DNA from: a virus
Virus record (IMG/VR): IMGVR_UViG_3300029858_000025
Reading direction: 5' to 3' (one strand)
DNA: 39,024 nucleotides
Made by a program: the position numbers and the translations under genes. The notes below the pieces were generated by a model. It was given only the letters and a program-made list of their open reading frames with translations. It was not told the DNA's origin and searched no databases. Of the stretch, positions 1,714-37,754 are shown in pieces (position 1 is the stretch's first letter; each line of letters begins with the position of its first letter).

Positions 1714-2343
1714 ATGCAATTAGGAGAAATGACATTCGGGGCAAACATCAAAATCCCCGAGCGCCGCGAGGATGGAACCTACGAGCTGGCTGACTACACC
1801 CTCGGTTGCCTCAATAATTTTGACGTAGGCACCGCAGGGCTTGCCCGCGAGGAGATACACAGCCGGTGCTGGTTTGGCGACAGCGCGGAGTACGCCGGAT
1901 CAGACCTGGACAAACGCATGACGGAAATATACAACAGCTACCCCAACGAGCTTAAAGAACTGATTATCCCCAGCACGATCCCGCTGTATAACGGCAGCGG
2001 CGCCAAGAATATAGCCCGAAAAGTATTTGCCCCCACGTTGACCATGGTATGCGGCGGCGACAATCACGGGATAGAAGAAGGCTTAACATGGCCTATATTC
2101 GCGGGAAGAAATAGCCGCAAAAAGACCTTTAATGGCTCGACAGCCTTCTGGTGGCTTTCCTCGCGGTACTCCTCTGACGGCGCCTGGTGCGTCTACGCGG
2201 ACGGCTCCGCCCACGACTTCGACTTGTGTTTCACGTTTGGTGTTGTCCCCGCTTTTATACTCCCTCAATCGGTGCAGATTGACGACACACCGGATAATGA
2301 CGGCAGCTACAGATTGACGGAGCTGCAAAGCTATTGCTCGTAA
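1714..2343 (+). CDS. DUF6273-like protein, paralogue A (209 aa)
   Basis: RBS AAGGAGG. Family pattern present: KVFAPTLTM ... WWLSS ... AW.V..DG ... GVVPAFILP. Paralogue of 3401-4030. Confidence 0.75.
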   Translation: MQLGEMTFGANIKIPERREDGTYELADYTLGCLNNFDVGTAGLAREEIHSRCWFGDSAEYAGSDLDKRMTEIYNSYPNELKELIIPSTIPLYNGSGAKNIARKVFAPTLTMVCGGDNHGIEEGLTWPIFAGRNSRKKTFNGSTAFWWLSSRYSSDGAWCVYADGSAHDFDLCFTFGVVPAFILPQSVQIDDTPDNDGSYRLTELQSYCS

Positions 2344-2350
2344 AAAAGCC

Positions 2351-2671
2351 ATGAAAAGCAAACGCACAAAAGCATGCGAAATACCTCTCAAAGTCAAGCG
2401 GTATGTATGGGAGAGGGACCATCATTGCTGCGTCCTGTGCGGCAGGCCCGGCAACCCGGACGCGCATTTTATTCCGCGCTCCCATAACGGGAAGGGAATA
2501 GAAGAGAACATCGTCACCCTGTGCCCTGAGTGCCACAGGGATTACGACAATTCAGAACGCAGGCCGGAGATCAGAAAGGCCCTCCGGGCGTACCTCATGG
2601 CCAAATACCCGGATTGGGACGAGGAAAAGCTGAGATACCGTAAGTGGAGGAGTGATTACATATGCAAGTAA
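2351..2671 (+). CDS. HNH endonuclease
   Basis: Cys pairs plus His/Asn/His: CCVLCGRPGNPDAHFIPRSHNGKGIEENIVTLCPECHRDYD. Confidence 0.85.
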   Translation: MKSKRTKACEIPLKVKRYVWERDHHCCVLCGRPGNPDAHFIPRSHNGKGIEENIVTLCPECHRDYDNSERRPEIRKALRAYLMAKYPDWDEEKLRYRKWRSDYICK

Positions 2672-2886
2672 GGGAGCTTTTACCCATAATCGCCCTGCTG
2701 AAAACACAACGGGTACGACTGTACCACTCGCCGGACGGGGCGCTGATCGGAGACTTCAGGAGGGAGGATATTCTTCCCGCCGTCTGCGGCAGAACGGTAG
2801 CCGCCCTGCTCGATGCGTCCCTGCTGTGCATGGATGCCAATAACAACTACATCAATTTATACGTTGCAACGGGAAAGGACAAATGA
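2662..2886 (+). CDS. Hypothetical protein (74 aa)
   Basis: ATG follows GTGGAGGAG. Overlaps the HNH stop by 10 nt, consistent with operon packing. Confidence 0.55.
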   Translation: MQVRELLPIIALLKTQRVRLYHSPDGALIGDFRREDILPAVCGRTVAALLDASLLCMDANNNYINLYVATGKDK

Positions 2887-2979
2887 TATGTGGGGAGCAT
2901 TTTTCAGCTGGGGAGTGCCGATGTTTGTTATAGGCGTAATGGCGGGCGTTGCATTCGCACCCCACAAAAGGAGATAGAC

Positions 2980-3372
2980 ATGGAAGCGTGCACAACCGGA
3001 CAAACCCTGTGCTGGCGTTGCCGAAGAGCGACCAACGCCCCAGGCATGGGCTGCAGCTGGTCTCGCCGCGCCGATCCCGAACCCGTTGAGGGCTGGGAGG
3101 CAAGGGAGACAACGCTGAAGGGCAGCGACTATTACCACGGCAAAAACTACACGACAATTATACAGTCCTACGTCATCCGCGCCTGCCCGCTGTTTTTGCC
3201 GGACGGGAAAAGCGAGCCGCCGCGTATATACAGGAAGTGGATCGTCGAAGTGGACGGCGAGTGGCTGACAATGCAGGAGACGAGGGAGCGGCTGGGCATC
3301 GACAGACACGAAATATACAAACTGATCGAGCGCGGCAAGCTCAACGCCAGACAAGTGGAGCAAATGAGCTAA
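2980..3372 (+). CDS. Zinc-finger plus C-terminal HTH protein (130 aa)
   Basis: ATG 2980 follows AAAGGAG. Contains CWRC...C.W and a C-terminal LTMQETRERLGIDRHEIYKLIERGKL. Confidence 0.55.
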   Translation: MEACTTGQTLCWRCRRATNAPGMGCSWSRRADPEPVEGWEARETTLKGSDYYHGKNYTTIIQSYVIRACPLFLPDGKSEPPRIYRKWIVEVDGEWLTMQETRERLGIDRHEIYKLIERGKLNARQVEQMS

Positions 3373-3400
3373 AAACATATCATAGGGAGGACATAAAAAA

Positions 3401-4030
3401 ATGAAATTAGGAGAACTACCATTCGGAAGCAACATCAAAATCCCCGAGCGCCGCGAGGATGGAACCTACGAGCTGGCTGACTACACCCTCGGTTGCCTCA
3501 ATAATTTTGACGTAGGCACCGCAGGGCTTGCCCGCGAGGAGGTACACAGCCTGTGCCGGTTCGGCGACAGCACGGAGTACGCCGGATCAGACCTGGACAA
3601 ACGCATGACGGAAATATACAACAGCTACCCCGACGAGCTTAAAGAACTGATTATCCCAAGCACGATCCCGCTGTATAACGGCAGCGGCGCTGAGGATATA
3701 ACACGGAAAGTATTTGCCCCCACGTTGACCATGGTAGGCTGCGGCGACAACCACGAAGCAGAAGAAGGCTTAACATGGCCTATATTCACGGGAAGAAATA
3801 GCCGCAAAAAGACCTTTAACGGCTCGGCAGCCAACTGGTGGCTTTCCTCGCAGAACTCCTCTGTCAGCGCGTGGTACGTCTACACGGACGGCTCCGCCTA
3901 CTACAACTTCCCGTCGCTCTCGTATGGTGTTGTCCCCGCTTTTGTAATCCCTCAATCGGTACAGATTGACGACATACCGGATAATGACGGCAGCTACAGA
4001 TTGACGGAGATGGAAAGCTATTGCTCGTAA
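3401..4030 (+). CDS. DUF6273-like protein, paralogue B (209 aa)
   Basis: Same length as 1714-2343. 111 nt are identical (3431-3541 = 1744-1854). The C-terminal WWLSS..GVVPAF segment is diverged. Confidence 0.75.
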   Translation: MKLGELPFGSNIKIPERREDGTYELADYTLGCLNNFDVGTAGLAREEVHSLCRFGDSTEYAGSDLDKRMTEIYNSYPDELKELIIPSTIPLYNGSGAEDITRKVFAPTLTMVGCGDNHEAEEGLTWPIFTGRNSRKKTFNGSAANWWLSSQNSSVSAWYVYTDGSAYYNFPSLSYGVVPAFVIPQSVQIDDIPDNDGSYRLTEMESYCS

Positions 4031-4070
4031 AAAGACTGCTAAAAACATATCAAAGGAGGACAAACGAAAA

Positions 4071-4523
4071 ATGGAAACAACTGAAAAGACTTTCGGCGTT
4101 TGCCGCTACTGCGGGCAACTGCTCAATATCAAGAGCTATTTGGCCCTACACCCAAACATCGACGACCCGGACGAGGACACGATAGCTACCCTTATATGTG
4201 ACTGCAAGGAGGCCAGACGCGACCGCGACACTCATGTGGCTGCCCTTCGGGGAGAGAGCGACCGCATTGAAGCCCTGCAAAAAGCAAATGACGTGATCGA
4301 GGAGCTTTTTACCGGCAATCCGCACCAGAAGCGCATGGCCGTGGACGAGCAGACATGGGAGATATTGCAGCAGCTTGCCGAGCGGGTGTACGGCGGTTTT
4401 GTGGACAAAGCGGTCATCACCACCACGGACGGAGTTAAGGCCACCGTAAAGAGCACCGGCTCCGCCGCTACCAGCATAGTTATAGAGCGCAGCGAGACCA
4501 AAAAAAAGAAAAAGGAGATATAA
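4071..4523 (+). CDS. Hypothetical protein with N-terminal CxxC / CDC motifs (150 aa)
   Basis: RBS AAAGGAGG. ORF-track product with a lysine-rich C-terminus. Confidence 0.6.
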   Translation: METTEKTFGVCRYCGQLLNIKSYLALHPNIDDPDEDTIATLICDCKEARRDRDTHVAALRGESDRIEALQKANDVIEELFTGNPHQKRMAVDEQTWEILQQLAERVYGGFVDKAVITTTDGVKATVKSTGSAATSIVIERSETKKKKKEI

Positions 4524-4526
4524 CCC

Positions 4527-5033
4527 ATGGAAAGCCGGGAGATATATGACATGCTCCTGCGCGCCATAGGGGAGCACGTGGACACAAAAGGCCGGGCCAC
4601 TGTCAGCATCAACGGCAGGCCCGCCCTGATAGTAACGATAAACCGGGAGACCGGAGAGGTTACCGCCCGCAATGCGATCACCGACACGACCGCCGCCGAC
4701 GCGGTAATAGACTACCTCAACACTGTTGCTGGTACTAAATACCAAAAAACGCCGAAAAACCGCAGCTATATCAACGCCCGCATTGCGGAGGACCATACGC
4801 CGGAGGACTGCCGCCGGGTAATAGACAGCCGCTGGGCAGCGTGGAAGGGGACAAAGATGCAGGAGTATATGCGCCCCTGCACCCTGTTCAACAGCGAAAA
4901 ATTTGAGGGCTACCTGTCGGCGGCAAAAACCAACATCAAAAAAATCGCTGGGAGTTATTTTATGAACCACATTCAGCGCCAATACTCCGCCGACGAGCTG
5001 GCGAAAATAGGCGTTGATCTGCTGGAGGACTAA
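4527..5033 (+). CDS. Phage conserved C-terminal domain protein (DnaD-like replisome organiser type)
   Basis: YINARIAEDHTPEDCRRVIDSRWAAWKGTKMQEYMRPCTLFNSEKFEGYL matches the pattern remembered for the phage DnaD-associated C-terminal domain. Confidence 0.55.
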   Translation: MESREIYDMLLRAIGEHVDTKGRATVSINGRPALIVTINRETGEVTARNAITDTTAADAVIDYLNTVAGTKYQKTPKNRSYINARIAEDHTPEDCRRVIDSRWAAWKGTKMQEYMRPCTLFNSEKFEGYLSAAKTNIKKIAGSYFMNHIQRQYSADELAKIGVDLLED

Positions 5034-5036
5034 AAG

Positions 5037-6360
5037 ATGCGACACCTGGGCGACATAACAAAAATCAACTGGGACGAAGTCGAGCCGGTGGATTGCGTCA
5101 CCGGCGGCAGCCCATGCCAGGATTTATCCATTGCCGGGAAGCGGGTCGGGCTTGCCGGTGAGCGGAGCGGCCTATACATGGAGCAAATACGATGCGTAAA
5201 GGAGTTGCGGAAAGCCAGTGAACGAACAGGCAAAATTCGACCTCGATATATGGTCTGGGAAAATGTGCCGGGAGCCCTTAGCAGCAACGGAGGAAAGGAC
5301 TTTGCGACAGTGCTCGAAGAAGCGGTCAAAATCGTCGAGCCGCAAGCCCCCTCTATTCCTGCGCCTGCAAAATGGCCCACAAGCGGGTGCCTCATGGGTG
5401 GAGGATGGAGCATTGCTTGGCGAGTACACGACGCGCAGTTTTGGGGAGTGCCCCAACGAAGAAAACGTATCGCGCTTGTCTGCGATTTTGGAGGACACAC
5501 CGCACCCGAAATATTATTTGAGCGCAAAGGCTTGCGCGGGGATACTGCGGAGGGCGGAACGGCACGGGAAGAAATTGCTGGAGCCGCTGAAAGCGGTTTT
5601 AATCCAGCAGTCGCAAGGAGCCTTACCGCAAGAGCGGACGGAAGCCCCTGCGCCGACAGAGGCCCCAACATCGTATGCAGCCCGCATCAGGGGGGGCGTG
5701 GCCGTCGGCATCGGCAACGGACAAGCCCATGAGGCCATGACCATGGCGCAGGAGGTTAGTCAAACGCTAAATACAATGCACGACAAACAGGCGATTTTAT
5801 ATCAGCCCAAAAGTATGATGGAAGAAAACTGGGCAGAAAGCGAAACGAAGAACGCATTACGCGCAGGAGAAAGTAAAGTGAGCCATGCGGTGTTGTGCAG
5901 CGCCGTTGATTGCCGGAATTTCACCGAGGGCGGAGAAATAAACGGAACCCTGCAAGCGAAAGAAAGCGGCGGGCAAAGCCTGAACCTGAATAATACAGTG
6001 CGGCAAAACATGATGGTGCGCCGGTTGACGCCGCTGGAGTATGAGCGATTGCAGGGTTACCCTGACGGATGGACTGACATAGGCAAGTGGAGAGACAGCA
6101 ACGGGAAAAAACATCGATCCAGCGACAGCGGCAGATATACAGCCCTGGGTAACTCAATAGCGTTACCGTTCTGGTTTTGGCTACTGCGGAGGATATCAGC
6201 GCAATATGAGCGGCCCGCCACGCTCGGCAGTCTGTTTGACGGCATCGGCGGATTCCCGCTCTGCTGGGAGCGGTGCAACGGCAAGGGGACGGCGCTGTGG
6301 GCGAGTGAAATTGAGGAGTTCCCTATGGCGGTAACAAAAAAGAGATTTGGGGAGGGATAA
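5037..6360 (+). CDS. DNA cytosine-5 methyltransferase, circularly permuted motif order, reading frame switches at a G7 run
   Basis: Frame A carries PCQ 5112-5120, ENV 5259-5267 and QRR 5454-5462, and stops at 5732. Frame B (open 5218-6360) carries RRLTPLEYERLQGYPDGW 6019-6072, GNS 6148-6156, FDGIGG 6235-6252 and SEIE 6304-6315. Confidence 0.85.
5690..5696 (+). repeat. G7 homopolymer at the frame junction of the methyltransferase
   Basis: Counted in ...cccgcatcagggggggcgtg.... Removing one G fuses ...SPHQGG to VAVGIGNGQ... Confidence 0.9.
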
Positions 6361-6361
6361 A

Positions 6362-6643
6362 ATGAAAACTATGAAAAAGAAGAAACTACCCACCTACACC
6401 GTCCTGATCCGCACACCCGCCGGGACGCAGACCGTTATTGAGACCAACGACTTTGCGAAAGCCAGACGGACATATGCCCAGTACAAGGGCTCATGCCGCC
6501 TGTGCATCGACGGGCGGGAGCTGCATATCCTTGAGGCGGACGAGCTGATGAACGACCACAGCGACAAAGTAATGGAGCAGATATTTATCCCGCGCCGCAC
6601 AAAGAAAACCGAGGACATACACGCATTAAAGCCTGCCCGGTAA
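6362..6643 (+). CDS. Hypothetical protein (93 aa)
   Basis: ATG 6362 follows GGGGAGGG. Starts MKTMKKKKLPTYTV... Confidence 0.6.
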   Translation: MKTMKKKKLPTYTVLIRTPAGTQTVIETNDFAKARRTYAQYKGSCRLCIDGRELHILEADELMNDHSDKVMEQIFIPRRTKKTEDIHALKPAR

Positions 6644-6653
6644 CACGGGCAGG
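6632..6653 (+). terminator. Stem-loop (8-bp stem cctgcccg/cgggcagg) overlapping the stop codon. A second hairpin lies at 6667-6687.
   Basis: Perfect inverted repeats read directly. The T-run is weak and displaced, so terminator function is uncertain. Confidence 0.35.
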
Positions 6654-6800
6654 ACTTGACCTTTTGCCGGGTGCGGCAATCACCCGGTCCTCCATTATGA
6701 TAGGGTGGCGGCAGGTGCGGCCAACGGGAAAACGCCCGCACTGCAAACCACCGCCCCCGGCAAAGGGCCAAGACATGATTATTAAAAAAAGGAGGCCGCC

Positions 6801-7526
6801 ATGCAGCGGGTACGGCGTGATATATATTCCGGCGTGGTGCTGGAGCGGATCATATACTCCGTGGGCGACAGGACGCAAAAACCCTACCGCCCGCGAAAAC
6901 CGAGGTTTAAGACGGACGAGGAACGGGCGCGGTTTAATTTTGAGGTAGCCCGCCGGGCCCATACCCGGCTGGTCAACGAAAACTTTACCCCGGCCTCGAT
7001 GTACAGCACATTGACCCAGGACGACGAGCACGAGGTACACGATTTTAAGGATTTCCGCCGCCTCTGCGTCAACTTCCGGCGCCGGCTGCTCTACGCCTAC
7101 CCCGAGGCAAAAATCGTTATCTACATGGGGCGCGGCAAAAACACCCACCGCATACACGCCCACATGCTGACGGACGGCATCCCGGAGGAGGCCATACGCA
7201 AACAATGGACGCTGGGCAGCGTCAATCGCTGCGAGCACCTCCGGGCGCACATCCACTATGACGGCATAGACCACGGCCCGGACTATACGGGGCTGGCCAA
7301 TTACTTGTTTAGTCACTGGACGCCGGAGCAGGGCGGGCACCATTACATGGCGACCCGCAACCTTGCCCCCTGCGGCAGGGAGCAGACAAAACCAATAAAA
7401 CGCAACTACACGCCGGCCAAACCGCCGCATACACCGAGGGACTATATCCTCGTCGAGAGCGGCGCGACAGAGTTCGGCTTTACCTATTTCAAGTATGTCA
7501 AAATCCCGCCCAAGCGGCGGTGTTAA
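6801..7526 (+). CDS. HUH-type rolling-circle replication initiator-like protein
   Basis: RBS AGGAGG. Ordered RCR-like motifs: YSTLTQ (motif 1), RIHAHMLTD (HUH) and ANYLFSH (Tyr motif). Confidence 0.55.
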   Translation: MQRVRRDIYSGVVLERIIYSVGDRTQKPYRPRKPRFKTDEERARFNFEVARRAHTRLVNENFTPASMYSTLTQDDEHEVHDFKDFRRLCVNFRRRLLYAYPEAKIVIYMGRGKNTHRIHAHMLTDGIPEEAIRKQWTLGSVNRCEHLRAHIHYDGIDHGPDYTGLANYLFSHWTPEQGGHHYMATRNLAPCGREQTKPIKRNYTPAKPPHTPRDYILVESGATEFGFTYFKYVKIPPKRRC

Positions 7527-7608
7527 GCGGCGCAAAGCGCAAGGCTTTTGCCGGGGCCTTGTAAATGCGTCGGATTTTACGACGATATCAAAAAGGAGGT
7601 AAAAACAA

Positions 7609-8058
7609 TTGCTGAAAGACTACACCATGACCCTCAACCGGGCGGGTATACCCGTATGGCGGCCTGCCCAACCGGTAATAGGCAAAGAGGACGAGCACCA
7701 GACCGCCCTGACCAACTGGGCGCGGATGATGCGGACGCAGTATCCAGCCCTGACGCTCTACCACCACATACCCAACGGCGGCTTACGCAATAAGCGCACC
7801 GCTGTGCGGCTGATGTGGCAGGGGGTACATTCCGGCGTACCGGACGTATTTATCCCTGCCGCCCGGGGCGGCTACCACGGCATATACGTCGAGCTCAAAA
7901 CTGGCGACAACCGTCCGACCCAAAATCAAAACGAGTTTATGAGCGGCGCCATGGCCGAGGGCTACTATTGCGCGGTCTGCTACGGCTGGCCCTGCGCCGC
8001 CGCGGTGATCGAGGACTATTTACAGATGGGCAAAACAGGAGGTGAGCGGCATGACTAA
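7609..8058 (+). CDS. VRR-NUC domain nuclease
   Basis: PD-(D/E)xK core GVPDVFI...GIYVELK. A TTG start lies 9 nt after GGAGG (alternative ATG at 7627). Confidence 0.75.
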   Translation: MLKDYTMTLNRAGIPVWRPAQPVIGKEDEHQTALTNWARMMRTQYPALTLYHHIPNGGLRNKRTAVRLMWQGVHSGVPDVFIPAARGGYHGIYVELKTGDNRPTQNQNEFMSGAMAEGYYCAVCYGWPCAAAVIEDYLQMGKTGGERHD

Positions 8059-8248
8059 CCACGAATACCTAAAACAGCAATCCGCCGAATGGCTGGCGGA
8101 CAAACTTGCCGAGATAGTGGACTGCGACTACTGCCCGGCGGCGGTTTATTGCGCCCGATGCAATGGACCATTCTACGAACTGGACATATCGGAATGTCGG
8201 AGAATGCTGGAAAACTGGCTGGGCACAGAAAGGACAGATAAACAATGA
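8051..8248 (+). CDS. Hypothetical Cys-rich protein (65 aa)
   Basis: ATG 8051 follows AGGAGGTGAGCGGC, an initiation region identical to that at 881-898. Confidence 0.55.
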   Translation: MTNHEYLKQQSAEWLADKLAEIVDCDYCPAAVYCARCNGPFYELDISECRRMLENWLGTERTDKQ

Positions 8249-8490
8249 GTGATTACATTAGTCTAAAAGTGCTTATAGCCAAGGTGGAAAAACAAAATTG
8301 CAACCCATGTAAGCGGCGAGGTGTTTACCTTGATGGAGAACAGTGTCGTTCTTGTGTGCTCAATAGGGTGCTTAAACAGTTACGAAGGATGCCTACCGTT
8401 GATGTTGCCCCGATGCGGTATGGGAAGTGGGTAACCAGGAATAAAAAGAAAAATACTGCCCCCAACCACGAGGCTAAGATGGACGAATAG
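8245..8490 (+). CDS. Hypothetical protein with the PTVDVAPMRYGKW module (81 aa)
   Basis: ATGA overlap with the upstream gene. CxxC pairs. Shares the motif with the three following genes. Confidence 0.6.
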   Translation: MSDYISLKVLIAKVEKQNCNPCKRRGVYLDGEQCRSCVLNRVLKQLRRMPTVDVAPMRYGKWVTRNKKKNTAPNHEAKMDE

Positions 8491-8506
8491 TGACAGGAGA
8501 ATAATT

Positions 8507-9196
8507 ATGGACGAAGTAAAAAACTACCCGCCTTATTTGGATTACCCAAAGTCATACACAGCGAGTGCAGATGAGCACAAACACAAAATAAAAACATCAT
8601 TCGCCAGAATTATTGTGGAAGGGACACCTGCAAAGCCATATTACAACATTGAATACTTTGACCCAACGGATAAGGAATACCATATTGGGTTTGGCTCGTA
8701 CTACCTCGATAATGTGTTTAATTGGTTTGCAGAGGAATTCGAGATCACAGAATCCCACACAGACACTGACACTGACTACATCAGCAGAGCAGCGTTGCTT
8801 GCTCGATACGATGCAGAGCACGTTGGCCCACCGGGCAGAGCAAGGGAATTGATTGCAACTGCTCCCGCCGCCGATGTTGTCCCCGTGGTGCATGGGGAGC
8901 TTACGGAGCGTATTCGTGAATTACTCCAGGCAGAGCAAGACGGACGGCTGTTGGTGCTCCCGTGCAAGGTCGGGGACAGAATATATCGAGTTATTGATGA
9001 TTGCACATTCCCCGGAGATTGCGGAACAAAACGGATGTGTAAAGGGTGCGAATATCGAAATTTGTTTATTGAAAAAACCACATTCCGCATGTATCTACTT
9101 ACTGATGAAGGGAAGTTACGACGAGGTTACTACCGTACCCGTGAAGAAGCCGAAAAGGCATTGAAGGATAACGCAGAAAGGACGGAGGGACAATGA
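8507..9196 (+). CDS. Hypothetical protein with the PAADVVPVVHG module (229 aa)
   Basis: RBS AGGAG. ORF-track product. Confidence 0.65.
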   Translation: MDEVKNYPPYLDYPKSYTASADEHKHKIKTSFARIIVEGTPAKPYYNIEYFDPTDKEYHIGFGSYYLDNVFNWFAEEFEITESHTDTDTDYISRAALLARYDAEHVGPPGRARELIATAPAADVVPVVHGELTERIRELLQAEQDGRLLVLPCKVGDRIYRVIDDCTFPGDCGTKRMCKGCEYRNLFIEKTTFRMYLLTDEGKLRRGYYRTREEAEKALKDNAERTEGQ

Positions 9197-15060: not shown

Positions 15061-16386
15061 TTGGGGCTGCCGCCGAACCCTAAACAGATGGAGTTTTTCC
15101 GCGCCCGTGGGCGGCACGTTGCGTATGGCGGCGCCAGGGGCGGCGGCAAGAGCTGGGCCATGCGAACCAAATTGATCATGCTGGCGGTCAAATATCCGGG
15201 CATACAGATGCTGCTCCTCCGTCGTACTATGCCACAGCTTCGCGAAAACCACATCGTCCCCATGCTGTCCACCCTCAAGGGGATCGCCCAATACAAGAGC
15301 CAAGAAAAGGTATTTGAATTTTACAACGGCTCCCGTATCGTGTGCGGCTACTGCGCCGCCGAGACCGACGCGCTCAACTATCAGGGCCAGTCATACGACA
15401 TTATAGGCATGGAGGAGGCCACACAGTTTACCGAGCAACAAATGGACTGGATCGTCTCTTCTAACCGTCCATCCGGCCCCGGCTACCCGACGCGCATGTA
15501 TTACACCTGTAATCCCGGAGGAGTAGGACACGCATGGGTAAAACGATTATTTATCGACCGCGACTACCGCAACAGTGAGCGGCCTGAAGATTATGATTTT
15601 ATCCCGGCAAAGGTATACGACAATTACGTCCTCATGGGGCGCGACCCGGATTACGTCCGCAAACTGGAAAACCTACCTGAGGACATGCGCCGGGCGCACC
15701 TGGACGGCGATTGGGATTTGTTTGTCGGGCAGTATTTCACGGAGTTTCGACGCGATATACACGTTGTCACACCGTTTGCAATACCCGATTACTGGCAGCG
15801 GTACAGGGCGTTTGACTACGGCTTGGATATGTTGGCCTGCTATTGGGCGGCATTTGACGAGCTGGGCAACTGCTACGTGTATAACGAGTATTGCGCCCCT
15901 AACCTCATCATCTCAGAGGCGGCGCACCGAATATTGGAGCGCACGCCGGAGGAAAGCAAAATAGAGTGTACATTTGCGCCGCGCGATATGTGGGCCACCA
16001 ACAGGGCCACGGGCAAATACCAGGCGGAGATATTTGAGGAAAACGGTTTGCGGCTAACACCAGTGAGCAACGGGAGAGTGGCAGGATGGCAAAATATAGC
16101 GGAGTGGCTGCACCCTGTCCCCGATGGCGTGGGCGGCACCCAACCCCGCCTGAAAATATTTAGCAACTGTACGGAGCTGATAAAGGATTTGCCGCTGCTC
16201 CAGCATGACGACAAAAACCCGAGCGACTGCGCGACAGAGCCCCACGACATAACCCATGCCCCGGACGGATTGCGTTATCTGCTGGACGGCAGACCGCGCC
16301 CGGCGGAAATACTCGCCCCGAAGGACGAGGACGAGCCGCTGGAATTTGACGACCAGATAGAGAATTTTATGGATTACGGAGGATAA
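15061..16386 (+). CDS. terL: Terminase large subunit
   Basis: Walker A GGARGGGKS. 441 aa. TTG start is uncertain (alternative ATG at 15088). Confidence 0.9.
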   Translation: MGLPPNPKQMEFFRARGRHVAYGGARGGGKSWAMRTKLIMLAVKYPGIQMLLLRRTMPQLRENHIVPMLSTLKGIAQYKSQEKVFEFYNGSRIVCGYCAAETDALNYQGQSYDIIGMEEATQFTEQQMDWIVSSNRPSGPGYPTRMYYTCNPGGVGHAWVKRLFIDRDYRNSERPEDYDFIPAKVYDNYVLMGRDPDYVRKLENLPEDMRRAHLDGDWDLFVGQYFTEFRRDIHVVTPFAIPDYWQRYRAFDYGLDMLACYWAAFDELGNCYVYNEYCAPNLIISEAAHRILERTPEESKIECTFAPRDMWATNRATGKYQAEIFEENGLRLTPVSNGRVAGWQNIAEWLHPVPDGVGGTQPRLKIFSNCTELIKDLPLLQHDDKNPSDCATEPHDITHAPDGLRYLLDGRPRPAEILAPKDEDEPLEFDDQIENFMDYGG

Positions 16387-16387
16387 A

Positions 16388-16606
16388 ATGGAATACCTCA
16401 TAGGCGCTGTGATAGGCGCTATTTTGTTTTTTGGCGGGTATCTGACCGCCTACAAATTGGCGCTGCGAAAAAAATACGAGCCTGACGATGACCTACAAGT
16501 GCAGTACGACGATACCCGCCGCACACGGGCCGACAAAATGAATATGCAGATGTATAACATGCTGAATTATACAGGGAGAGCACAGAATGACGATTACGAA
16601 GACTGA
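16388..16606 (+). CDS. Small membrane protein (72 aa)
   Basis: N-terminal TM segment LIGAVIGAILFFGGYLTAY. RBS GGAGGA. Confidence 0.55.
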   Translation: MEYLIGAVIGAILFFGGYLTAYKLALRKKYEPDDDLQVQYDDTRRTRADKMNMQMYNMLNYTGRAQNDDYED

Positions 16607-18287
16607 CCCCCAAAGCGTATGGGAGGAGTACCAGCAGGGCAGGCGATACAAAGAGGCCATAAACCTGTACGAGGACGTGCGACTTAATGAAAATTTCTAC
16701 CTTGGGCGGCAATGGGAGGGGCTGAACGCTCCCGACCTGCCTAAGCCCGTGCTCAATTTTCTCAAGCGCGTCGTTACCTACGTTATCGCCACCATATCCT
16801 CAAACGATATAGCCGTATCCCTATCACCCCACGAGAGCGACCGGGACAAGGAAATGACCGCCAAAGCCGTAAGCAGGCAACTTGAGAAGGTCATTGAAAA
16901 CACAAAATTTAAAAACGCGCTGCGCCAACGGATACGGGATAGCGCAGTAGACGGCGACGCATGTATGTATTTTAGATTTGACCCCGAAATAGCGACAGGA
17001 CAGGCCGCACAGGGCGATATAGCGTGTGAGGCTATAGACAACATCAATGTGATATTTGGCAACGCATACAACCGTGATGTGCAGTCACAGCCCTATATCA
17101 TCATTTGCCAGCGCAAAAAGGTGAAGGAACTGAAACGCGAGGGCAAGGCCGCCGGCATGAGCGACGCAGAAATACAACTGATACAGGCCGACACAGATGC
17201 ATATCAGCGCGAAAAGGGCGACGATGCAAACCTCTGTACCAAACTGATAAAACTTTGGAAGGAAGAAAACGGCGAAATCTGGTACACGAGCACAACGGAA
17301 AAGGCGACGATAAACAAGCCCACCAATACGGGCCTAAAACTCTACCCCGTGGCATGGATGAGCTGGGACGAGGTAAAGAGCAGTTACCACGGGCAAGCAC
17401 TCCTCACCGGCCTCATCCCCAACCAGATAGAGGTCAACAGATTGTTCGCCTGTTATGTGCGGTCCGTCAGCATGAACGCATTTCCGAAGATCGTCTATGA
17501 TTCCGACAAAATCAAGAAATGGACAAACAAGGCCGGAGAGGCCATAGCGACAAAGGGCATCGGCGTAGGACGGGTAAACGATTATGTAACAGCCATACGC
17601 GGCGGCGATGTATCCTATCAGGTCATGGAGGTCATACAGCAGATCATAACCATGACCCGCGATTTTATGGGCGCCTCTGACGCCGCGCTCGGCAACGTCA
17701 AACCCGATAACACCTCCGCCATTATCGCCGTGCAGCAGGCCTCGTCAATGCCGTTGGAAATCCAGCGGATGAACCTATACCAATTTACCGAGGATTGCGT
17801 GCGGATAATGATGGATATAATGCGGGCGTATTACGGCGTGCGCATTGTCACGCTGGATGAGGCCGTCCCCGCCATAGAGGACGGCGCCGCGCTTGACACC
17901 ATGGGCAACCCGACAGGGGAGAGCATCAATAAAATACAGCTCGATTTTTCAAACTTTGACACCATCAACTACGATACAAATGTTGATGTGGGCGCGTCCT
18001 CGTACTGGTCTGAGCTGATGCAGGTACAGACCATGGATAACCTGTTTACAAAAGGGATAATGACCGACGCGGTGCTGTACCTCGAAAGCATACCGAGCAA
18101 ATACCTGAAAAACAAGGATAAGATAATCGCCTCGGTGAAGGAGCAGCAGGCCATGATGGCACAGCAGGCCGCCATGCCCGCGGAAGCCCCGCCCGCAGAA
18201 ATGCCAATAACTGATACAGCGGCGCAGGAGCTTGTGAACCAGGTTGCCGAAGCACGGCGGGAAATAATGAATCAATCGCGACAATAG
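16587..18287 (+). CDS. Portal protein
   Basis: 566 aa immediately after terminase. Contains the NENFYLGRQWEG motif typical of SPP1-type portals. Confidence 0.85.
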   Translation: MTITKTDPQSVWEEYQQGRRYKEAINLYEDVRLNENFYLGRQWEGLNAPDLPKPVLNFLKRVVTYVIATISSNDIAVSLSPHESDRDKEMTAKAVSRQLEKVIENTKFKNALRQRIRDSAVDGDACMYFRFDPEIATGQAAQGDIACEAIDNINVIFGNAYNRDVQSQPYIIICQRKKVKELKREGKAAGMSDAEIQLIQADTDAYQREKGDDANLCTKLIKLWKEENGEIWYTSTTEKATINKPTNTGLKLYPVAWMSWDEVKSSYHGQALLTGLIPNQIEVNRLFACYVRSVSMNAFPKIVYDSDKIKKWTNKAGEAIATKGIGVGRVNDYVTAIRGGDVSYQVMEVIQQIITMTRDFMGASDAALGNVKPDNTSAIIAVQQASSMPLEIQRMNLYQFTEDCVRIMMDIMRAYYGVRIVTLDEAVPAIEDGAALDTMGNPTGESINKIQLDFSNFDTINYDTNVDVGASSYWSELMQVQTMDNLFTKGIMTDAVLYLESIPSKYLKNKDKIIASVKEQQAMMAQQAAMPAEAPPAEMPITDTAAQELVNQVAEARREIMNQSRQ

Positions 18288-19216: not shown

Positions 19217-20278
19217 ATGGCTATCAATCTACACGAAAAATACTCCGACAAAATCAAACAGGTCTATACCCACAACTCTTTTGTCGAGGGAAAAACCAAC
19301 CAGGAATACTCTTTTGTCGGCGTCAAAACCGTCAAAATCCCCAATCTCATTACCCAGGACCTTAACGACTACCAGCGCACCGGCACCAACCGTTACGGCA
19401 CTCCCAACGAGTTGCAGGACGCCATACAGGAGCTGAGCGTTACTCAGGACAAGTCCTTTGCCATCACCATCGACAAGGGCAATAACGTCGAGCAGCAGAT
19501 GATGAAGCAGGCAGGCCGCGTCATGGAGGCGGAGATGCGCGAAAAGGTAACGCCCACCTCCGATAAGTACGCCCTCGCTCAGTACGCCGCCAATGCAGGC
19601 CATACCATAGCCTATGACGCTGCCGTGGCCAAGAGCAACATAATCTCTAAGCTGCTTGATATAGAGGTCTACTTCGAGGATAGCTTTGTCCCCACCGACC
19701 GCCGCTATGTGTTTGTGAAAAACACGCACATTGCCATGATAAAGCTGTCCAGCGAGTTCCAGTACGCCGACAGCGCGGTGGATAAACTGCTCATGAAGGG
19801 CATTGTAGGCAAGATAGGCACTCTCAACATCGTAGGCGTACCCGCCGCGTATATGCCTACCAACGTAGAGCATATCGCGTTCCAGTCCAATTCCGTTATG
19901 CTGCCCTTCAAGATCAAGGACAGCCGCATACATCAGGACCCGCCCGGCCTGTCCGGTCACCTGCTGGAGGGCCGCTTCATGTACGACGCATTTGTCATAG
20001 GCGCTATCTGCGACGGCGTTGTAGTTGTTGTGGCCAAGGAAAAGAAGTGCGCTGCGCCCACCGTGACCAAGGGCACCACGACCACCATAACTACTACCAC
20101 CTCCGACGCAGAGGTCTACTATACCACCGACGGCTCTGATCCCCGCTGGTCTACTACCCGAACCAAGTACAGCGCCGCCATTGCCAATCCCACCGCAGGG
20201 ACCATCATTAAGGCATACGCGACCTATATTAGCGGCGGTATGTATCCCTCCGATGTAGTCACCCACAAGTGCGTTTAA
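19217..20278 (+). CDS. Major capsid protein with C-terminal Ig-like (Fn3-associated/CHB_HEX_C-like) domain
   Basis: Position after the scaffold gene. C-terminus is T-rich linker TTTTITTTT followed by YYTTDGSDP...YSAAI... Confidence 0.75.
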   Translation: MAINLHEKYSDKIKQVYTHNSFVEGKTNQEYSFVGVKTVKIPNLITQDLNDYQRTGTNRYGTPNELQDAIQELSVTQDKSFAITIDKGNNVEQQMMKQAGRVMEAEMREKVTPTSDKYALAQYAANAGHTIAYDAAVAKSNIISKLLDIEVYFEDSFVPTDRRYVFVKNTHIAMIKLSSEFQYADSAVDKLLMKGIVGKIGTLNIVGVPAAYMPTNVEHIAFQSNSVMLPFKIKDSRIHQDPPGLSGHLLEGRFMYDAFVIGAICDGVVVVVAKEKKCAAPTVTKGTTTTITTTTSDAEVYYTTDGSDPRWSTTRTKYSAAIANPTAGTIIKAYATYISGGMYPSDVVTHKCV

Positions 20279-36641: not shown

Positions 36642-37754
36642 TCATTTTGTGGTTTCGCTCTGGCAACTTTCTGGCAACCTTTTTTTGAAAGCGTCCATAA
36701 CCGCGCCCGCGCTTGCGTCCTCTTTTTCCTTTGAAAGGTGTGAATAAATTTCAAGCGTTACCTTTACGTTGGCGTGGCCAAGGAATTTCTGCGCGGAAAG
36801 CACGTCAACGCCGGCATTATAGAGTATGGAGGCGTAATTGTGCCGGAAGTAGTGCGGCGTGAGGATAGAGGCGCCGTCCTCTCTCGTTTCTATGTCGGGC
36901 CCCAACTCTGCCATGCGCTCCATCAGCGAACGCCATAGCCTATTTGAAGAGGAATTGCGATAGTATGTGCCATCGGGGGCGGGGAATACAAACGCCTGCG
37001 GGAATCCCCGCACGAGCATTTCCGCCAGCTCGTCCGGCAGGGGTATATCCCGTATGCTCTCCTTCGTCTTGGGCGGAGTTATCATGCCCTTCCTTAAATT
37101 GACCTGCTGCCGGACGTGTATGACCTTCTTCCTGAAATCTACACATTCCCATTGCAGGCCGAGGGCTTCGCCGAGCCTCATTCCGGTATAGTATAGCAAT
37201 GCCACCAGCAGGCCGTTTTCCTCCTGCATCAGCTTCTTTGCCGCTTCTTCCTCCGCTTCCGTCAGCGCCCGGCGGCTTGACTTTTCTTTCGTGGGCTTGA
37301 CCAGCCCCACGGTCACGTCCCGCTGGATTATCCCCTCGGAGTATGCCCGCTTAAAGACGGATTCTAACACATGATGTACATTTTCGATTATGGTTACGCA
37401 CGTATCGCCCTTGGAGTTAAGCAGCTCCTGCAAATCCATAGTGGATATTGCGGTGAGTCGCTTGTCCCCCAGAACAGGCAATATGTGCTTGTTGAGTGCC
37501 GTCTTATATCCGCTCTGTGCCGATTCCTTTATGTTCGGCTTTTTGTAGACATTATACCACTGTATGGCGTATGGGCCGAAAAGCGCGTCCTTCTGTGCGG
37601 TGCGCCCGGTGATGAACTCTTGTTTGACCGCCTCCTTCGCGGCCTCCAGCTCCTTCTTTGTGCGCCCGGATACATATTTTATCACGCTGCCGCCGTTCAT
37701 ATCCTTACCGACGGTTACTTTAGCCCTATACCTCCCGTCACTTTGCCTTGCCAT
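36642..37754 (-). CDS. int: Tyrosine integrase
   Basis: 370 aa. C-terminal catalytic region TPHYFRHNYASILYNAGVDVLSAQKFLGHANVKVTLEIYSHL, with upstream GMRLGEAL (Arg). Confidence 0.9.
   Translation of the reverse strand: MARQSDGRYRAKVTVGKDMNGGSVIKYVSGRTKKELEAAKEAVKQEFITGRTAQKDALFGPYAIQWYNVYKKPNIKESAQSGYKTALNKHILPVLGDKRLTAISTMDLQELLNSKGDTCVTIIENVHHVLESVFKRAYSEGIIQRDVTVGLVKPTKEKSSRRALTEAEEEAAKKLMQEENGLLVALLYYTGMRLGEALGLQWECVDFRKKVIHVRQQVNLRKGMITPPKTKESIRDIPLPDELAEMLVRGFPQAFVFPAPDGTYYRNSSSNRLWRSLMERMAELGPDIETREDGASILTPHYFRHNYASILYNAGVDVLSAQKFLGHANVKVTLEIYSHLSKEKEDASAGAVMDAFKKRLPESCQSETTK
36660..36683 (+). repeat. Two tandem TGGCAACYTT repeats (right arm), inside the integrase 3' end
   Basis: Exact 22-nt copy of 36442-36463. 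Confidence 0.5.

Follow-up and report, generated by a model that had tools for sequence, protein, structure and literature searches.

The gene at positions 5037-6360 of IMG/VR virus record IMGVR_UViG_3300029858_000025, a DNA stretch of 39,024 nucleotides that is referred to in its entirety as the window, is best explained as a whole as belonging to a large family of natural phage C5-cytosine methyltransferases with circularly permuted chains. We place the probability of this reading at about 0.88. The motifs of the gene follow the order III-IV-VI-VIII-TRD-IX-X-I-II (TRD, target-recognition domain), with the block of motifs I and II, which binds S-adenosylmethionine (SAM), downstream of everything else. 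An earlier reading of the window (the original prediction) had proposed this order and a position for each motif; the positions were all exact on the sequence, and the order was borne out by the alignments described below.

The window copy contains a run of seven G residues (G7) at 5690-5696. When one G was deleted, the resulting protein of 440 amino acids (aa) matched PF00145 in four stretches with E = 7e-33 and a score of 114.8 bits (cut-off 22). The C5 motif set was complete: I (FxGxGG), the acidic residue of II, the PCQ cysteine of IV, VI (ENV), VIII (QxRxR), IX (RxxTxxExxxLQGFPD), and X (GN). These catalytic and cofactor motifs were invariant in 57 permuted relatives. A phmmer search against PDB chains aligned residues 16-55 of M.HhaI, which hold motifs I-II, to query residues 398-439, and M.HhaI residues 59-130 to query residues 5-86. 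A tblastn search with the canonical relative P0267 placed its residues 47-264 at 5037-5675, its residues 361-457 at 5893-6213, and its residues 4-44 at 6220-6348. Both searches gave match segments in the swapped order that had been anticipated. The gene therefore has neither the canonical topology, with I-II N-terminal and X C-terminal, nor the topology called zeta class or Type H, in which IX-X precede I-VIII. Its N-terminus lies between motifs II and III and the old termini are joined, which is the arrangement called Type B.

The junctions were examined by alignment to canonical relatives, which read '...WASEIE.FP.EVTK.RFP.M.HVGDITKL' across the II-to-III region. Permuted genes begin, with ATG or GTG, at the conserved Met of the canonical 'RFP.M.HLGD' and end 2-10 residues past 'RF(G/P)'; the window gene starts at this same Met and ends with 'VTKKRFGEG*'. 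Because the chain starts at the conserved Met and ends shortly before it, the permuted chain is unit-length, with nothing lost or redundant. The break had been placed between II and III, with chain ends that are adjacent residues in ordinary enzymes, and '...VTK.RFP.M.HVGDITK' in the canonical relatives agrees with this. At the other junction, the motif X helix 'GNSIALPFW.W..RI.AQYERPA' continues directly into 'TLGSLFDGIGG', and the X-to-I linker, which had been described as short, is about 13 residues long. Among 57 permuted proteins with 50-90% identity, residues S399, L400, F401, D402, G403, I404, G406, F407, W422, S424, and E425 were invariant. Codon-position homozygosity in the relocated block was 0.75/0.79/0.40 over 22 loci, which is the signature of purifying selection; to judge from this pattern, the relocated C-terminal I-II block is under such selection. 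Invariant residues and codon pattern both mark the block as functional sequence.

An AlphaFold2 model was produced from the 57-sequence alignment (predicted template-modelling score, pTM, 0.66). Values of the predicted local distance difference test (pLDDT) exceeded 85 for residues 1-165 outside the loop at 33-43; residues 330-440, among them the relocated block, had values of 88-97. The C-terminus of the model showed the expected beta1-alphaA-beta2-alphaB secondary structure, and the best Foldseek matches were M.HhaI, M.MpeI, and M.HaeIII (probability 1.0). The model has an M.HhaI-like two-domain fold with a confident catalytic domain, the TRD lying outside the confident part. In the model, the motif X helix, which sits beside motif I in the normal fold, would run through the linker into beta-strand 1, and the new chain ends would sit in the loop between motifs II and III. 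Since X packs beside I and the new ends fall in that loop, an ordinary two-domain enzyme fold is expected. The proposal that the permuted chain could still fold is thus supported by the predicted structure, in which the relocated block is confident and matches M.HhaI-type structures. From its family membership, the enzyme would form 5-methylcytosine with the help of SAM and the PCQ cysteine, the modular multi-TRD region would set its target sequences, and its likely role would be to shield phage DNA from host restriction.

Size, spread, and origin of the permuted family

Among 5.8 billion proteins searched, more than 100 relatives had 70-94% identity and full-length coverage. All 120 listed homologues had the order III..VIII-TRD-IX-X-I-II; they start with M(K/R/Q)HLGDITK and most end with ..WASEIEEFPMAVTKKRFGEG. 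In addition, 1.84 billion 50%-identity representatives were searched exhaustively with HMMER, and the best 150 were classified by motif order: 140 were permuted (III..X-I-II), 4 were canonical (I..X), 5 had the order IX-X-I-II-III..VIII, and 1 was a fragment. A second, N-terminal I-II block was found in no permuted member. The X-to-I junction and the motif III start recurred in hundreds of independent contigs and assemblies, down to about 50% identity. Misassembly of the window is therefore excluded, including the misplacement of 6215-6360 that had been named as a possible refutation.

A scan of one GTDB genome per bacterial species yielded 22 permuted loci and about equally many canonical ones. 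The permuted loci were mainly in metagenome-assembled genomes of Clostridia, plus the isolate Oscillospiraceae bacterium 44-5; the locus of the isolate Flintibacter muris DSM 110149 (L039) had the motif III start, and its I-II block was not detected. Canonical loci included prophage genes of Oscillibacter valericigenes (L026) and Chakrabartyella piscis (L031). In the complete isolate genome of C. piscis BP5G the methyltransferase gene is present twice, as prophage copies (L031/L032).

The IX-X-I-II junction was found in ten deposited phage records, from human faecal viromes and from the cultured Faecalibacterium phages FP_Toutatis and Lelie. These genes were annotated either as two separate 'DNA-cytosine methyltransferase' coding sequences (FP_Toutatis) or as 'hypothetical protein' (Lelie). 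In FP_Toutatis (MG711466, L059) the coding sequences are 1623-2228 and 2270-3034. The second holds TRD-IX-X-I-II; the first holds motifs III-VI and then enters the frame of an embedded open reading frame (ORF) described in the next section, so that motif VIII is missing in that reading. Gene callers sometimes picked this embedded ORF over the intact 542-aa methyltransferase ORF around it. In L050 the intact ORF (2823-4451) was omitted, and the embedded 151-aa ORF (3001-3456) and a 273-aa C-terminal fragment (3630-4451) were called instead; L051-L054 had the same mis-split calls. Because gene calls in several assemblies skip the intact ORF, automatic annotation systematically mis-splits the permuted family. 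Inteins consisting of a Hint domain and a LAGLIDADG homing endonuclease were present in the N-terminal catalytic core of P0142 (~26-382), P0173 (~82-422), and P0226 (~36-295). The P0142 intein is inserted within motif IV, at GGSPC, and a canonical relative in Ruminococcus callidus ATCC 27760 (L043, 5157-6079) has an insertion of ~900 bp at the same site.

A neighbour-joining tree was built from the concatenated conserved core blocks. All 20 canonical sequences formed one clade, with 143 permuted sequences and 4 of a third topology on the other side. The tree is consistent with one permutation event, after which the family diversified widely. The third topology is exemplified by P0122, with the order TRD'-IX-X-I-II-III..VIII-TRD'', in which the X-to-I linker of the permuted genes is retained alongside the canonical 'RFPGMKHLGD' junction. 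Three independent assemblies (L055 1637-3259, L056 1556-3178, and L057 132-1754) carry the complete 540-aa gene for P0122 between other genes, and P0209, P0215, P0231, and P0264 are further proteins of this topology. Judged by motif order, that of P0122 is the expected product of another truncation of the same fused tandem dimer. The permutation would have arisen by tandem duplication and in-frame fusion of a canonical phage Dcm-type gene (order I-X); the fused gene would then have been trimmed to start at the pre-existing Met before motif III and to stop just after motif II. Of the two kinds of relative that the original prediction had proposed looking for, those with canonical order were found; P0122, with both types of junction, is a further form of the sort that permutation by duplication would leave.

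Several observations weigh against this overall reading. The tandem-duplicated intermediate itself was not found; in the longest members of the family the extra length consists of long TRD arrays or inteins, not of another methyltransferase copy. The tree was built from distances and rooted at its midpoint. Among the 22 permuted loci of the species-genome scan, 9 were broken or split, so many copies may be decaying. The TRD (residues 173-320) could not be modelled, with pLDDT <50 over positions 5697-6018, and the Foldseek template-modelling scores were modest, because Foldseek is unable to align across a permutation. Finally, the extra G splits the window gene itself into two overlapping ORFs: ORF-A (motifs III-VIII, 231 aa), and ORF-B (380 aa), which joins the embedded-ORF peptide to TRD-IX-X-I-II.

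The embedded +1-frame ORF and the G run

The frame +1 to the methyltransferase frame (frame 0) contains a conserved ORF of ~150 codons embedded in the gene, from 5218 to about 5640 in the window (Table 1). In 44 of 46 loci, canonical and permuted, the +1 frame was open for at least 105 codons from ~165-175 nt past the motif III Met. It was ~142-207 codons long in intact single-frame genes and extended to the gene end where the downstream half of the gene is in +1; the +2 frame was mostly closed within 20-80 codons. In synonymous-codon shuffles the chance of the +1 frame staying open had a median of 0.066 per locus, so that chance alone would not be expected to keep it open. Nearly all loci had an ATG 1-3 codons past the upstream +1 stop, and the frame-0 codons of 'VKE(M/L)R' (GTAAAGGAG) provide both this stop and a Shine-Dalgarno sequence. 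Homozygosity at frame-0 positions 1/2/3 was 0.75/0.85/0.39 before the overlap, 0.67/0.74/0.52 inside the overlap, and 0.41/0.58/0.70 for residues 166-200; as far as codon positions can tell, this last pattern is the one expected if selection acts on the +1 frame.

The embedded-ORF peptide belongs to a family of 564 database proteins, mostly 140-170 aa long and without a Pfam domain, with the C-terminal consensus '..LSQILE..(K/R)Y(Y/F)LS.KAC.GILRRAE.RGK.LP..L..AL'. The ORF, with an ATG close to its 5' end, was also found in P7/P1 dmt, Vibrio phage 1.046.O, Pseudomonas phage D14E, Mycobacterium phage Omega (gp127), and Streptococcus phage Javan422, and it spans ~130-165 codons in the checked phages of Firmicutes, Actinobacteria, and Proteobacteria hosts. 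Across host phyla the +1 peptide is conserved over 48 residues, and frame 0 only for the first ~22. In Omega (L061), 1104-1847 (gp127) and 1854-2408 (gp128) are methyltransferase halves annotated as separate genes, in the same frame with a stop and one codon between them, and may represent a split enzyme or read-through. In an AlphaFold model of the embedded-ORF peptide the N-terminal half was poorly ordered, and the C-terminal domain had three helices predicted with confidence. The peptide gave no Pfam, NCBIfam, or PDB match and one weak match (PHROG 16143), the low-confidence model gave no structural match in Foldseek, and literature searches returned no description of such an ORF.

The embedded ORF is fused to TRD-IX-X in the +1-shifted loci, and motifs III-VI are fused to its peptide in FP_Toutatis; these natural fusions with methyltransferase parts suggest that its product works with the methyltransferase. 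The ORF is thus a candidate for a translated, functional gene. At slightly less than even odds, we propose an ancient +1 gene of phage-type C5-methyltransferases whose product would act with the enzyme as a small subunit or regulator, with one-base slips (G6/G7) making a two-chain enzyme. Since both frames are open over the overlap, such a slip would convert a single-chain enzyme to a two-chain one, not destroy it. If translated, the embedded ORF would rank, among long same-strand overlapping genes of phages, with the most widely conserved, and it would bear on the workings of the well-studied P1 Dmt.

In the G7 allele of the window the embedded frame is open on to 6360, and ORF-A ends in the out-of-frame tail RGRRHRQRTSP after the G run. 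One close relative with the same junction, the independent contig L001, is 94% identical over 1.7 kb; it is identical to the window across the site except that it has G6 in place of G7, and it encodes the intact protein P0002. The earlier suggestion to remove one G at 5690-5696 was therefore right. We give even odds to G7 being either a sequencing error in the homopolymer or a slip that a single-chain enzyme acquired very recently. An alternative candidate, a true frameshift near 5480, where the +1 translation looks protein-like, was rejected because comparison with relatives showed both frames to be genuine there and placed the indel in the G run.

The frames of the conserved blocks were tabulated for 62 loci. 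Most had all blocks in one frame. The downstream half was in the +1 frame in eight lineages (the window, L013, L014, L017, L028, L035, L036, and L044-48) and in the +2 frame only in L030 and L039, a split of ~8 to 2. L044-48 are five separate assemblies with the same split, and L017 has a G8 tract at the place equivalent to the G run of the window. With a +1 shift, the downstream half becomes continuous with the embedded ORF, and because this ORF has a start of its own, such alleles can still express both halves. Because the frameshift is located where a conserved dual-coding stretch ends, and because the configuration recurs in relatives, it cannot simply be edited away.

These results bear on a second possibility, namely that the locus encodes a genuine two-chain enzyme, assembled from alpha' (III-VIII) and beta' (embedded-ORF peptide, TRD-IX-X-I-II), which are made from overlapping ORFs. 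Beta' would start from the ribosome-binding site of the embedded ORF, and poly-G slippage might switch the gene between single-chain and two-chain states. Two overlapping ORFs are present in the G7 allele, and the downstream-half-in-+1 configuration recurs in the seven other lineages just listed, but L001 has G6. Natural two-chain C5 enzymes do exist, for example M.EcoHK31I (PMC2836561). However, in this lineage the conserved reading of the first TRD-like module (ARSLTARADGSPCADRGPNIV) is that of frame 0, and ORF-B reads the same DNA as a low-complexity linker; the close relatives P0001, P0002, P0004, P0007, P0018, and P0022 are all single-frame; and the GTG of ORF-B, 13 nt past its Shine-Dalgarno sequence, is weaker than the ATG of the relatives. 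Pattern scans of viral contigs and metagenome contigs found no further copies of the G-run junction, and the exact ORF-A product had no record in any other assembly. We consider a two-chain enzyme possible, at clearly less than even odds. Programmed +1 ribosomal frameshifting had no recognisable shift site in a reading confined to the surroundings of the frame-0 stop.

It is unlikely that a real frameshift has killed the enzyme in this prophage and left the locus as a decaying relic. The interrupted copies in the species-genome scan would favour such an inactivated pseudogene, as would the other frameshifts seen in FP_Toutatis, P0284, P0368, and P0188. Against it, the window copy has no second lesion, it retains 94% identity to the intact relative, and both of its ORFs are open to their ends; moreover, the +1 bias of the split copies argues that many are tolerated, not dead. 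The idea that the 3' I-II block is artefactual, and comes from misassembly or from the remnant of another methyltransferase gene further downstream, can be dismissed as highly improbable: nothing beyond the unusual topology supports it, and against it stand the recurrence of both junctions, the lack of an N-terminal I-II block in permuted members, and the in-frame position of the block with its purifying-selection codon pattern and invariant FDGIGG and SE. Membership in a natural permuted family therefore remains our preferred reading of the locus.

The G run lies at a junction of TRD modules. Relatives P0001, P0004, P0007, P0010, P0018, P0022, and P0053 have near-identical catalytic cores, and whole TRD modules differ between them and window positions 5580-6018; total lengths among these TRD-shuffled relatives were 426-562 aa. 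In the sequences this looks like cassette-style shuffling of TRD modules, which would change specificity. At the G run itself, P0002 has QGG-VAV-GIGNG vs QGG-CDG-GIGNG in P0018, and other relatives have inserted modules. Because this junction is variable even among very close relatives, the G-run site is a rearrangement hot spot.

Features of the locus and its surroundings

The features of the locus and the recognisable genes that identify the window as a temperate tailed-phage genome are listed in Table 1.

Table 1. Coordinates of the permuted methyltransferase gene, its embedded ORF, and other genes in the window
Feature	Position	Strand	Remarks
Phg_2220_C / phrog_428-type replication protein	4527-5033		5' neighbour of methyltransferase; PHROGs scan
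Ribosome-binding site GGAGGA (5024-5029) and ATG start (5037)	5024..5039	+	Shine-Dalgarno eight bases 5' of start
Whole permuted C5-cytosine methyltransferase gene	5037..6360	+	440 aa after deleting one G of 5690-5696
ORF-A, frame 0, 231 aa	5037..5732	+	motifs III, IV, VI, VIII, and first TRD-like module (ARSLTARADGSPCADRGPNIV)
Motif III MRHLGDITKI	5037-5066	+	read on sequence
Motif IV PCQ	5112-5120	+	read on sequence
Embedded +1 ORF (altORF)	5197..5607	+	over motifs VI-VIII plus ~30 further codons
+1 stop TAA	5197-5199	+	
Shine-Dalgarno AAGGAG	5199-5204	+	inside frame-0 VKELR
Embedded ORF GTG start	5218	+	
ORF-B, frame +1, 380 aa, GTG start	5218..6360	+	embedded-ORF peptide, linker, TRD modules, IX, X, X-to-I linker, I, II
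Motif VI ENV	5259-5267	+	read on sequence
Motif VIII QRR	5454-5462	+	read on sequence
Conserved C-terminal helical domain of embedded ORF	5464-5607	+	SRLSAILEDTPHPKYYLSAKACAGILRRAERHGKKL
G7 homopolymer	5690..5696	+	at junction of TRD modules
Variable target-recognition region 3' of G run	5697..6018	+	modules GIGNGQAHEA..VSQTLNTMHDKQAILY; ..INGTLQAKESGGQSLNLNNTV
Motif IX	6019-6072	+	ORF-B
Motif X GNS	6148-6156	+	ORF-B
X-to-I linker	6157-6219	+	ORF-B
Motif X helix, ~13-residue linker (..RRISAQYERPA), SAM-binding block (beta1/motif I, beta2/motif II)	6157..6360	+	chain end RFGEG*
Motif I FDGIGG	6235-6252	+	ORF-B
Motif II SEIE	6304-6315	+	ORF-B
93-aa ORF	6362-6643		PHROGs scan: without match
phrog_3584 replication initiator	6801-7526		3' of methyltransferase; PHROGs scan
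Large terminase	15061-16386		
Portal	16587-18287		
Major head protein	19217-20278		
Integrase	36642-37754	minus	
Embedded ORF in relatives, own positions	L058 2216-2713; L060 1974-2366; L061 1273-1752; L062 1261-1704; L063 1273-1731		L058 is P7 dmt

The methyltransferase locus is placed in the replication module, between the phrog_428-type and phrog_3584 genes. The PHROGs scan found no match to a restriction-enzyme family among neighbour ORFs at 3401-9196. A tblastn search with P0267 found no second C5-methyltransferase locus in the window, which disposes of the objection that an intact canonical dcm might lie elsewhere. Megablast of 4500-6700 against phage records gave two partial matches only, neither bringing annotation. 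Upstream, a 209-aa early-region ORF at 3401-4030 matched a Hoc-like head-decoration PHROG, an odd position for a structural-type domain; its syntenic counterpart in relative L052 carries DUF6273. A split large terminase, considered as a sign of an assembly prone to homopolymer errors, was ruled out: the upstream ORFs are an Erf-like protein and the small terminase, and the terminase thus gives no sign of an error-prone assembly.

Comparison with known systems

C5-methyltransferases are a textbook case for how circular permutation arises. Because one clade holds canonical, Type B, and third-form genes, the last with both junctions, it is a natural record of permutation by duplication. Permutants of the same topology as the window gene have been made in the laboratory: Slaska-Kiss et al. 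(2018) built circular permutants of M.MpeI and M.SssI, and Type B (their Class B; N-terminus between II and III) was by far the most active, as in cp62M.MpeI and cp58M.SssI (PMC5944983). Directed evolution of M.HaeIII (Peisajovich et al. 2006, summarised in PMC5944983) likewise gave variants starting between II and III. In all of these the native termini are fused either without a linker or through a short one. When cp62 was divided into the fragments [62-279] and [280-61], a split like that of the window gene, partial methylation was still obtained (PMC5944983). Whereas the engineered permutants are laboratory constructs, the window gene belongs to a natural, diverse phage family with multi-module TRDs.

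The same study searched REBASE and identified 27 permuted C5 enzymes from nature, each with its break in the variable region; Type B was reported absent among natural enzymes, and a presumed cost in SAM binding was offered as the explanation (PMC5944983). The claim that known natural permuted enzymes use a different breakpoint from the window gene was thus correct. A classification of prokaryotic methyltransferase topologies (revised December 2025) gives only canonical and zeta for 5-methylcytosine (m5C) enzymes, and our full-text literature searches found no report of natural Type B enzymes. Sequences of natural Type B C5-methyltransferases are already abundant in public data, but they are not recognised as such. 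Given a large, diverse, selected natural family with the II-III break, the explanation of Type B absence by SAM-binding cost needs revisiting, and a kinetic comparison of close permuted and canonical enzyme pairs is now possible. Because the permuted genes are annotated as generic, fragmentary, or hypothetical, methylome predictions for human-gut phages miss or mis-split them.

The zeta/Type H enzymes (M.BssHII, M.Alw26I, M2.Eco31I, M.Esp3I, and M2.BsaI) are also natural permutations of the C5 fold and are likewise explained by duplication and truncation. They differ from the window family in breaking in the variable region, not between II and III, and in belonging to restriction-modification systems, whereas the window gene has no restriction-enzyme gene among the neighbours at 3401-9196. 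The third-topology protein P0122 resembles them. Plant DRM2, whose chains were among the weaker PDB sequence matches of the window protein, is a C5 enzyme with likewise rearranged motif order; DRM enzymes form another permutation already described, in addition to the M.BssHII type. Their order is VI-X then I-V, with the break between V and VI; these enzymes are eukaryotic and of unrelated origin.

M.AquI is, besides M.EcoHK31I, a second example of a natural two-chain C5 enzyme. Both consist of two polypeptides from overlapping frames, an arrangement that resembles the ORF-A/ORF-B state of the window and the embedded +1 ORF. Unlike the window gene, neither is permuted. The beta chain of M.EcoHK31I is encoded in another frame inside alpha (PMC2836561) and serves as the precedent for a role of the embedded ORF with the methyltransferase. 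That chain holds motif IX, whereas in the intact relatives of the window family frame 0 holds all ten motifs and the embedded ORF encodes a helical domain.

The multispecific C5-methyltransferases of the Bacillus phages SPR, phi3T, rho11s, and H2 carry several short target-recognising modules in tandem between VIII and IX. Like the window gene they are phage-borne, multi-module, and without a partner restriction enzyme, but their motif order is canonical. The canonical phage Dcm-type relatives (L026, L031, Javan422, and the C5 domain of P1/P7 Dmt) share with the window gene both the motifs and the embedded +1 ORF, and those in the species genomes are 47-61% identical to it in the III-VIII core; in these enzymes, by contrast, motifs I-II are N-terminal and the C-terminus after motif X is free.

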